Shown: one piece after another, positions 51,365-52,156 of the stretch
How the letters are laid out: each line of letters starts with the position of its first letter
Numbering within the stretch: position 1 is the stretch's first letter
Assembly (NCBI GenBank): GCA_010093705.1
Contig: MU006090.1
Coordinates: 1,205,817 to 1,269,816 of the forward strand
From: Patellaria atrata CBS 101060
Taxonomy: Eukaryota
Reading direction: 5' to 3'
DNA: 64,000 nucleotides
Notes under the pieces: model-generated
Databases searched by the model: none
What the model was told of the DNA's origin: nothing
Seen by the model: only the letters and a program-made list of their open reading frames with translations
Translations under genes and position numbers: made by a program

Positions 51365-52156
51365 ATGCAGCAGAAACTCTTCAACATCCTCCTCGCAAGC
51401 GCGAGCTTGCTGAGCAGCGTGTCCGCTATACCAGTAGCTCAAGCATCCGACTCCGCTGGAATTGGCCCTTCTCCAACCTCAACAATTATCTGGTCTCGCG
51501 ATGCCCCCAAGGATTACATCCCGCTTCCCAAACCATCCTCAACCATAATATGGAACAAGAGGGATCCTGAGGCTCAAAAGAACTACATCCCGCTCCCGAA
51601 GCCATCATCCACAATCGTATGGAGCAAGAGAAACCCTGGCCCCCCCAAGGACTACATCCCGCTTCCCAAGCCAACCTCAAAGATCACGTGGAGCAAGAGA
51701 GACCCTGAAGCAGAGCCTGATGATGATGAGGTTGAGATTGTGACAACTCCTGGCACTACTATCACCTGGGGCAAGAGAGAGGCTGAAGCCGAGCCCGCCG
51801 AAGCTAAGAAAGGGAAGGATACTGTCATATTTGGCAAGCCCACCAGCACCATCAGTTGGAACAAGAGGGACGCTGAACCCGAGCCCGCTGAAGCGAAGAA
51901 AGGAAAGGATACTGTCATATTTGGCAAGCCCACCAGCACCATCAGTTGGAACAAGCGCAACCCGGACCCCGTAGCTGAGCCACAGTCAGACCCTACCTGC
52001 GTCAACGTCTGTGACTCGAACGGATCAAACATCTCATTCGGAAACCCATCGACCACCGCTGGTGGTGGTACCCCATCAACAGGACAACAATCACCTCAAC
52101 CTACCTCATCAAGCACGATTACATGGGGCAAGAGGGCTATCAGCTTCGAAGCATAA
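51365..52156 (+). CDS. Secreted Kex2-processed repeat protein (KEP) / multi-peptide precursor
   Basis: Signal peptide MQQKLFNILLASASLLSSVSA|IP. Eight units end in I-x-W-[SNG]-(K)R (seven KR sites and one single R). Post-cleavage spacers are X-A/X-P dipeptides (DA, DPEA, NPGP, DPEAEP, EAEAEP, DAEPEP, NPDPVAEP). Confidence 0.88.
   Translation: MQQKLFNILLASASLLSSVSAIPVAQASDSAGIGPSPTSTIIWSRDAPKDYIPLPKPSSTIIWNKRDPEAQKNYIPLPKPSSTIVWSKRNPGPPKDYIPLPKPTSKITWSKRDPEAEPDDDEVEIVTTPGTTITWGKREAEAEPAEAKKGKDTVIFGKPTSTISWNKRDAEPEPAEAKKGKDTVIFGKPTSTISWNKRNPDPVAEPQSDPTCVNVCDSNGSNISFGNPSTTAGGGTPSTGQQSPQPTSSSTITWGKRAISFEA
51779..51958 (+). repeat. Near-identical 90-bp coding tandem duplication within the KEP gene
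   Basis: 51779-51868 and 51869-51958 both encode ...EPAEAKKGKDTVIFGKPTSTISWNKR and share GATACTGTCATATTTGGCAAGCCCACCAGCACCATCAGTTGGAACAAG exactly. Confidence 0.92.

Follow-up and report, generated by a model that had tools for sequence, protein, structure and literature searches.

Does a gene that repeats one short motif between dibasic sites encode a set of small secreted peptides, and does it stand by itself or belong to a family? The question is raised by a gene at 51365..52156 of a 64,000-nucleotide stretch of DNA from Patellaria atrata CBS 101060 (contig MU006090.1), the whole of which is here called the window. An original prediction had proposed that this gene specifies a multi-cassette secreted precursor and that its products are a candidate new fungal peptide family. 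Judged from its homologies, the predicted product, P0001, belongs to a conserved but uncharacterised Dothideomycete family of KEPs (Kex2-processed repeat proteins); it is a divergent member, and of those known it appears to be the most divergent.

The open reading frame (ORF) of P0001 runs unbroken from ATG to TAA over exactly these positions on the forward strand and comprises 263 codons before the stop; its translation agrees letter for letter with the units typed out in the original prediction. All eight W-ended units described there are present, each ending in [ST]-[STK]-I-x-W. The accompanying statement that they are followed by K-R holds for units 2 to 8, which continue with x-K-R, but not for unit 1, which continues with S-R and ends W-S-R-D, a monobasic site. 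Every one of the eight tryptophans of P0001 is the W of such a unit. In a six-frame translation of the window, the expression [ST][STK]IxWx[KS]R has seven matches within P0001 and none elsewhere. When the mature protein was shuffled 100,000 times, no shuffle gave more than one match to [ST][STK]-I-x-W-x-[KS]-R, and at least one match was seen in 28 of them. The W-unit repeat pattern of P0001 is far beyond chance.

The repetition is also visible in the DNA, where Tandem Repeats Finder reports a 69-bp array of 2.8 copies at 51515-51708 (75% matches) and a 90-bp array of 2.0 copies at 51772-51955 (93% matches). Comparison of units 2 and 3 reveals eight synonymous and three non-synonymous codon differences among 18 codons. 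The two 90-bp copies differ by four synonymous and two non-synonymous codon changes, all of which fall in the spacer, the core being identical. Purifying selection acts on the peptide core. The 90-bp repeat splits the assembled contigs of both public runs that hold the locus (window 51815-51934; pieces of 51 and 99 nt), an example of how repeat genes of this kind become fragmented or missed in assemblies.

The N-terminus carries a predicted signal peptide of 21 residues, as originally proposed. Kyte–Doolittle (KD) hydropathy, KD(9), peaks at 2.41 within residues 1–25 compared with 0.93 in the rest of the protein, V-S-A precedes the predicted cut, and the relatives described below begin with a similar leader, MQYRFVS..AAP. 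Exactly at residue 22, the position of the predicted cut, begins a register of X-P/X-A dipeptides, IP-VA-QA. Dipeptides of the X-A/X-P type stand in register after all seven basic sites that precede a unit, numbering 1, 2, 2, 3, 3, 3 and 4, and A and P together make up 21% of the mature protein.

A KEP is defined by at least three similar motifs between KR, RR or KK sites, by repeats that cover at least 15% of the protein and by an N-terminal signal peptide (PMC6339444). P0001 has seven KR-flanked units and one SR-flanked unit; its eight cores of about 14 aa amount to about 112 of 263 residues; and the leader is indicated by hydropathy, by V-S-A and by the leaders of the relatives. By these published criteria, P0001 is classed as a predicted KEP. 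K-R pairs combined with X-A/X-P dipeptides constitute the alpha-factor-type Kex2/Kex1/Ste13 processing grammar (PMC6339444), and the KR-flanked units and in-register spacers bear out the earlier recognition of this grammar in the gene.

According to this model, signal peptidase would cut after A21, Kex2 would cut after each of the seven K-R pairs in the late Golgi, Kex1 would trim the trailing K and R, and a Ste13-type dipeptidyl aminopeptidase would remove the X-A/X-P dipeptides. This would yield six different peptides, linear and probably unmodified, 17–49 aa long and all ending in I-x-W-[G/S/N], with one of them present twice, and in addition a hexapeptide (Table 1). The suggestion that one gene encodes several distinct peptide types is thus retained. 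The predicted charges range from −5 to +2, and the residue that follows W at the seven KR-flanked units is N, S, S, G, N, N and G in turn. The 49-aa unit of piece 7 contains two Cys and both N-x-S/T sequons of the protein and ends SSSTITWG. The peptides would act outside the cell. Overall, we consider it rather probable that P0001 is processed into secreted, unmodified linear peptides, and linear peptides derived from KEPs have been seen by mass spectrometry in other fungi (PMC9769878).

Units 1 and 2 would probably be released as one double-W peptide, because the homologous junction in relatives has no basic residue: the window protein reads IIW-SR-DAPKD at this point and the relatives read IIW-DT-PAPVD (IIWDTPAP) or IVW-DAPKD. 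Monobasic W-[GS]-R-[DE] junctions, found in the window protein at aa 43-46, recur at particular units in the metagenome loci L006, L013, L016, L018 and L009/L011 and in the proteins P0003, P0018 and P0013.

A motif and hidden Markov model search across fungal proteins had been suggested as a check on the prediction, and it is this kind of search that recovered the family. A word-index protein search with P0001 alone matched only P0001 itself. When 1.84 billion representatives were searched exhaustively with phmmer, 13 proteins, P0001 itself among them, passed E<=1e-3, the match to P0002 having E 1.9e-16; ten of the 12 others are built of a W unit like that of P0001, for example DTIELGKPSTEITWGKR. 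The other two, P0006 (371 aa) and P0007 (576 aa), represent another KEP-like family with two-Cys cores (GFCGVPGASCSKR and ANFCGLPGTFCFNKR); they matched P0001 only through acidic spacers of the DAEPEPA type and were left out of all family counts. A profile was then built from nine members and 8000 candidates were scored with it, yielding 30 proteins at E<=1e-3, among which P0001 itself scored E 1.4e-56. Scanning metagenomes with a closer alignment (A2) produced 65 pattern matches, which came down to 30 loci.

Ten family records are named, and all are "hypothetical" or "uncharacterized" proteins of Pleosporales. They come from Alternaria sp., A. dauci, Bipolaris sorokiniana, B. oryzae, B. maydis, B. 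zeicola, Amniculicola lignicola, Boeremia exigua, Ascochyta clinopodiicola and A. rabiei. The proposal of a new peptide family therefore stands in one respect and not in another: the core strings are absent from the literature searched, but the gene is not a one-off, given at least ten named Pleosporales records and the metagenome contigs. No paper was found in the literature searched for either the core strings or the locus tags of the relatives. The motif strings had no match in the searched supplements of PMC6339444 and PMC7329392, of which the KEP list of the former is barely readable and Table S2 of the latter contains no sequences. Since B. oryzae and B. zeicola are both included in that Table S2 (12 and 8 KEPs respectively, with types 15, 16, 57, 134 and 234 in both), the W-unit family may already be in the published KEP catalogue, without a name, under some type number.

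A longer subfamily consists of P0013 (855 aa), P0026 (447 aa, partial), P0005 and P0033. These proteins have W units such as IGITPPKATIIWGKR and in addition very long Pro/Glu-rich spacers and a C-terminal Cys-rich domain without a Pfam match.

Alignment of the units changes the picture of what is shared. The position-wise family consensus is D-T-I-E-L-G-K-P-S-T-E-[VI]-T-W-G-K-R, with a core of about 14 residues, D-T-I-E-L-G-K-P-S-T-E-[IV]-T-W-[GSN], and all eight window units align to it. The I-x-W end had been taken to be the one invariant element, joined to N-termini that vary. Instead, about 14 positions are common to the units, following the pattern hydrophobic-x-[LF]-[GP]-K-P-[ST]-[ST]-x-[IV]-x-W, and the seemingly unrelated beginnings YIPLPKP, VIFGKP and EIVTTP are aligned variants of a single 14-residue core.

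The 55 distinct family sequences contain 395 tryptophans, of which 341 have I or V at position −2. A [KR]R site lies within the next six residues in 271 cases, 208 of these having G directly after the W, and a further 48 tryptophans lie three residues or fewer from the C-terminus of the protein. Moreover, 52 of 59 family sequences end within three residues of a W, which is how the last copy in a putative precursor of processed peptides ends. The distance from W to the cut varies, with W at P4, P6 or P7 (WGKR, WGKEKR and WSKDKKR), so that conservation of the W is not explained by protease recognition alone and the W would be part of the peptide.

Resemblance to the relatives extends to individual unit subtypes. 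The window string IPLPKPSSTI[IV]W has a counterpart, DPLPKPSTEIIW, in three loci (identity 12-13 of 24 residues), EAEAEPAEAKKGKDTVIFGKPTSTISW matches EAEAEAEKPKDTFTLGKPETTVTW (12/24 identical), and the spacer and core of piece 5 are similar to family units of the form EAEAE.KPKDTFTLGKP.T.VTW (12/24 identical). At least two subtypes are therefore common to the window lineage and the Pleosporales-like loci, one of the PLPKPS type and one of the form EAEA..K.KD-T-[FV]-x-[FL]-GKP.

Evidence of expression comes from one of the relatives. Contig L025 (1655 nt) corresponds to the genomic contig L027 minus two segments; two of the exon blocks are 100% identical between the contigs and the third is 99.3% identical. 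Both segments absent from L025 are introns of the canonical GT..AG form and have CTGAC branch sites; one is located just after the signal peptide and the other in the 3′ untranslated region (UTR). Transcription and splicing are shown for this relative. At the position of the first of these introns the window gene is uninterrupted. Poly(A) tails were looked for at the termini of the 30 metagenome contigs, and none was seen.

Structural modelling indicates a protein without a confident fold. AlphaFold2 (AF2), supplied with the family alignment, gave a mean predicted local distance difference test (pLDDT) score of 41.6, with none of the 263 residues reaching 70, and the Atlas model has a pLDDT of 0.46; P0001 is thus intrinsically disordered according to the models. 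AF2 places short paired strands at E121-126/E131-135 and E152-156/E161-165 with low confidence, and a small hairpin is suggested by the alternating pattern I-x-L / G-K-P / [IV]-x-W. A profile search of the PDB gave a best E of 0.35, nothing meaningful. Structural matches from Atlas were not used, on account of template modelling (TM) scores of at most 0.55 and the low pLDDT of the model.

A number of observations weigh against the view that P0001 and its relatives release peptides that act as ligands. No transcript of the window gene was found among the public runs with the locus, both of which are DNA contigs identical to the window and uninformative on expression. Across the family, 76 of the 395 tryptophans are followed by neither a dibasic site nor the protein end. 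In relatives, 222 of 264 post-dibasic sites lack an X-A/X-P dipeptide; the Ste13-type spacers belong to the window protein, not to the family. In the subfamily of P0013 and P0026 some W units have no KR, for example ISLGPPSYSISWDTG, and in proteins of this type the W module may be used inside an intact protein. The composition of P0001, rich in Ser, Thr and Pro and with two N-glycosylation sequons, also fits a glycoprotein. Cleavage, trimming, secretion and function have all been deduced from sequence, peptide release being a prediction for every member of the family, and the role as receptor ligands that we favour below is pure inference. In addition, knockouts of KEP genes in other fungi are often without phenotype (PMC9769878, PMC10589705).

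These observations bear most directly on the idea that P0001 is an intact, O-glycosylated, Ser/Thr/Pro-rich repeat protein, secreted or in the cell wall at the hyphal surface, and uncut or cut only once. S and T account for 21.5% of the mature protein and P for 13.6%, and the KR-less units, long Pro/Glu spacers and C-terminal Cys-rich domain of P0013 and P0026 would suit such a protein, as would the tryptophans that no dibasic site follows. Nevertheless, the seven K-R pairs, lying in a protein without a confident fold, would be expected to be accessible to Kex2 along the secretory pathway, an X-A/X-P register behind each of the sites would be purposeless in an uncut protein, and the great majority of family sequences stop right after a W unit. 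Nor does P0001 possess a C-terminal signal of the glycosylphosphatidylinositol (GPI) type, its last 15 residues having a mean KD of −0.11 and thus forming no hydrophobic tail, and a Pfam scan matched no family to it, PIR and other wall-protein families included. An intact glycoprotein is in our judgement unlikely. Lower still we place the notion that the released peptides are structural, self-assembling and amphipathic and coat hyphae or spores as the Rep1 repellent peptides do. The alternation of hydrophobic and polar residues on both sides of the G-K-P turn (I-x-L ... [IV]-x-W) and the paired short strands modelled at the core are compatible with it, but the peptides are short, carry charged residues within the strands and have no confident structure, and the Rep1 peptides of Ustilago maydis are longer. 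This makes a structural role very unlikely.

Processed peptides could also be directed at other organisms, whether plant host, competitors or grazers, and serve there as effectors or antimicrobials or imitate peptides of the host. Plant pathogens are well represented among the named members (Alternaria, Bipolaris, Ascochyta, Boeremia), plant-associated fungi are reported to have more KEPs (Le Marquer et al., as quoted in 10.1101/2023.11.20.567875), and roles in biotic interactions have been proposed for KEP peptides (Vogt et al., PMC9769878). Set against this, the core is retained across lifestyles, including those of the wood saprobe Amniculicola and of a Dothideomycete outside Pleosporales, and most of the family peptides are anionic or near neutral, in contrast to typical antimicrobial peptides, which are cationic. 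Host-specific effectors seldom show such conservation among distant lineages and lifestyles. We assign peptides of this type a small chance. Mimicry of plant peptides of the DY or IDA type was considered and dropped, the likeness being superficial and DY not being conserved (one unit has NY and the family DT).

Two further alternatives take the resemblance to known precursors literally. In the first of these, P0001 would be a dikaritin-type precursor of a RiPP (a peptide made by ribosomes and modified post-translationally), the cores of which DUF3328 (UstYa-like) oxidases close into rings, as happens in ustiloxin, phomopsin and asperipin. The precursor grammar of signal peptide, KR-delimited cores and repeats is alike, Y-I-P-L occurs in three window units, and DUF3328 neighbours accompany 22% of catalogued KEPs (PMC7329392). 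The dikaritin likeness noted in the original prediction is, however, not matched by any DUF3328 gene nearby. In Pfam scans, none of the window's 116 ORFs, taken from stop to stop and 100 aa or longer, matched DUF3328, tyrosinase, methyltransferase or another RiPP-tailoring family over the 51 kb upstream of the gene and the 12 kb downstream, and the same families were likewise missing from 48 flanking ORFs of 12 related loci, with the proviso that intron-split genes with exons below 100 aa could escape. Furthermore, Tyr is not conserved, being present in three of the eight window units where the family consensus has T. A dikaritin precursor is accordingly highly improbable. We think equally little of the possibility that P0001 is the alpha-type mating pheromone precursor of the window lineage. 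Its design is like that of MFalpha1, and an Atlas feature search returned 'Pheromone 1' and MF_alpha among the nearest clusters with scores of 0.75-0.80, which fall below the bar of 0.9 and are leads only. Regular-expression searches of P0001 found neither the PYG[L/M]P[I/V]G core of Pleosporales nor the two-Cys type W-C-x-x-x-G-Q-x-C of other Dothideomycetes and Pezizomycotina (motifs from PMC6339444), in keeping with the earlier remark that the paired Cys/GQ pattern is lacking. There is no MF_alpha Pfam match, and Pleosporales genera that have the W-unit family are also reported to have the PYG-type pheromone, so that the two coexist (PMC6339444).

The immediate neighbours of the gene, all four listed in Table 1, are by their homologies predicted housekeeping genes. 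The best named matches of the UNC45 homologue are to Botryosphaeriales (56-59% identity), with 45-50% identity to Pleosporales, and by this marker the window organism is placed among Dothideomycetes outside Pleosporales. Six immediate neighbours, including the LRR, UNC45, TBC and Spartan genes and one uncharacterised gene, have no match in the 30 metagenome loci. Two genes further upstream, PNPOx-like and SulP-STAS-cNMP, have homologues (46-54% identity) situated 1.5-6 kb from the KEP gene in four loci (L017/L029 and L014/L015). This resembles conserved linkage in a changed order, and conservation of the kind 'same chromosome, shuffled order' is typical of Dothideomycetes. The recurrence of the PNPOx-like and SulP genes suggests an old shared locus and a gene that predates the split of the lineages.

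Two other regions of the window may be noted. Over about 6.7 kb on the 3′ side of the KEP gene (52200-58900) no ORF exceeds 190 aa and ORFs of at least 100 aa have no Pfam match, the GC content being 0.40-0.47 and the GC skew climbing to +0.28 around 57.5-58.5 kb; possible explanations are a lengthy intergenic region, a repeat in decay or a gene rich in introns. An ORF at 892-1878 on the reverse strand matches the Pfam 'Luciferase domain' (PF17648, E 1.3e-25) and is unrelated.

Table 1. Coordinates of the KEP gene, its predicted pieces, neighbouring genes and features of related loci (window positions unless a locus is named).
Feature	Position	Strand	Remarks
KEP precursor P0001, single-exon coding sequence (263 aa + stop)	51365..52156	+	ORF and translation
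Predicted signal peptide, aa 1-21 (MQQKLFNILLASASLLSSVSA)	51365..51427	+	hydropathy peak; similar leaders in relatives
Predicted piece 1, aa 22-66	51428..51562	+	IP-VA-QA spacer, unit 1 (..PTSTIIW-SR) fused to unit 2 (DAPKDYIPLPKPSSTIIWN-KR)
Predicted piece 2, aa 67-89	51563..51631	+	DP-EA spacer + QKNYIPLPKPSSTIVWS, then KR; closest family units PLPKPSTEIIW, 13/24 identical
Predicted piece 3, aa 90-112	51632..51700	+	NP-GP spacer + PKDYIPLPKPTSKITWS, then KR
Predicted piece 4, aa 113-138	51701..51778	+	DP-EA-EP spacer + DDDEVEIVTTPGTTITWG, then KR; acidic, net charge −5
Predicted piece 5, aa 139-168	51779..51868	+	EA-EA-EP spacer + AEAKKGKDTVIFGKPTSTISWN, then KR; internal KK
Predicted piece 6, aa 169-198	51869..51958	+	DA-EP-EP spacer + second copy of AEAKKGKDTVIFGKPTSTISWN, then KR
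Predicted piece 7, aa 199-257	51959..52135	+	NP-DP-VA-EP spacer + 49-aa S/T/G/P-rich unit, then KR
Predicted C-terminal hexapeptide AISFEA	52136..52153	+	no hydrophobic tail
Large LRR protein	40109-45889	+	neighbour
UNC45/She4/Cro1 homologue	46254-48719	+	neighbour
RabGAP-TBC protein	58918-61731	-	neighbour
Spartan-like protein	62857-63501	+	neighbour
PNPOx-like gene	10164-11350		homologue near relatives' KEP gene
Sulfate-permease/STAS/cNMP (SulP-STAS-cNMP) gene	26467-29952		homologue near relatives' KEP gene
Neighbour homologue in metagenome locus	L017:4480-5283
Neighbour homologue in metagenome locus	L029:4960-5724
Neighbour homologue in metagenome locus	L015:9525-12441
Intron of relative, 49 nt	L027:2828-2876		just after signal peptide
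Intron of relative, 51 nt	L027:3390-3440		in 3′ UTR

Returning to released linear peptides as the preferred reading of P0001, we favour for them a role as endogenous ligands that a conserved receptor of the fungi would bind, since distant Dothideomycete lineages with different lifestyles have kept both the core and the unit subtypes; a host-specific weapon is less likely. A more detailed proposal, which we advance tentatively and regard as doubtful in this full form, is that the family supplies the ligands for an undescribed peptide signalling system of Dothideomycetes, distinct from pheromones, in which one precursor would deliver a fixed set of subtypes to a conserved receptor, such as an orphan G protein-coupled receptor, and so control development or colony behaviour. 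To our knowledge, almost no KEP has a known function. KEPs are numerous, with 7878 in 1461 strains falling into 838 types (PMC7329392). Among them the W-unit family stands out a little for its presence in distant Dothideomycetes, including major crop pathogens, for its 14-residue core, for the distinct subtypes within one precursor and for at least one member that is expressed in nature. On these four counts it is a reasonable candidate for a peptide signal conserved in fungi, and the predicted products provide exact peptide masses to look for. The monoisotopic masses calculated are 1957.067 for QKNYIPLPKPSSTIVWS (17 Da lower should its N-terminal Q cyclise), 1970.088 for PKDYIPLPKPTSKITWS, 1947.895 for DDDEVEIVTTPGTTITWG, 2377.264 for AEAKKGKDTVIFGKPTSTISWN not cut at its KK, and 3967.037 for the double-W piece of 37 aa.

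Several known systems share parts of this design. Like the dikaritin precursors (UstA, PhomA, asperipin), P0001 combines a signal peptide with repeated KR-delimited cores. Dikaritin cores are short, at 4-6 aa, with a conserved cross-linked aromatic residue, whereas those of P0001 are about 14-17 aa long and have no conserved Tyr. Rep1 provides a parallel in that one precursor cut by Kex2 gives rise to many related amphipathic peptides; no sequence similarity of P0001 to Rep1 was found, and the Rep1 peptides of Ustilago maydis act structurally at the wall. In animal prohormones of the POMC-type design, too, a single precursor holds several distinct peptides. The W-G-K-R of the family consensus resembles the animal signal for cleavage and amidation, but the window protein does not retain this G, and C-terminal amidation was dropped from consideration on this ground; we also know of no amidating enzyme in fungi.

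The closest comparisons are with KEPs themselves. P0001 shares with them, and with the yeast prototype MFalpha1, the signal peptide, the repeated cores that end in KR, the X-A/X-P spacers and the disorder (PMC6339444, PMC7329392), and in most W-unit relatives the last core likewise ends the protein. It differs in that it carries several core subtypes and not identical copies, and its core is absent from the motifs named in the accessible portion of PMC6339444, namely DADAATXYV[A/V]D, YVW[G/A][G/S], SPPHKT, QKLKVD and XSDW. The Pleosporales alpha-pheromone KEP with the core PYG[L/M]P[I/V]G is found in the same class of fungi, has the same grammar and has no DUF3328 neighbours (PMC6339444); the core of P0001 is different, with neither PYGxPxG nor C..GQxC. 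The W-unit family is expected to be a second KEP family separate from the alpha-pheromone, with both genes in the same genomes. It thus opens no new kind of system, and represents an uncharacterised conserved family within the known KEP class.

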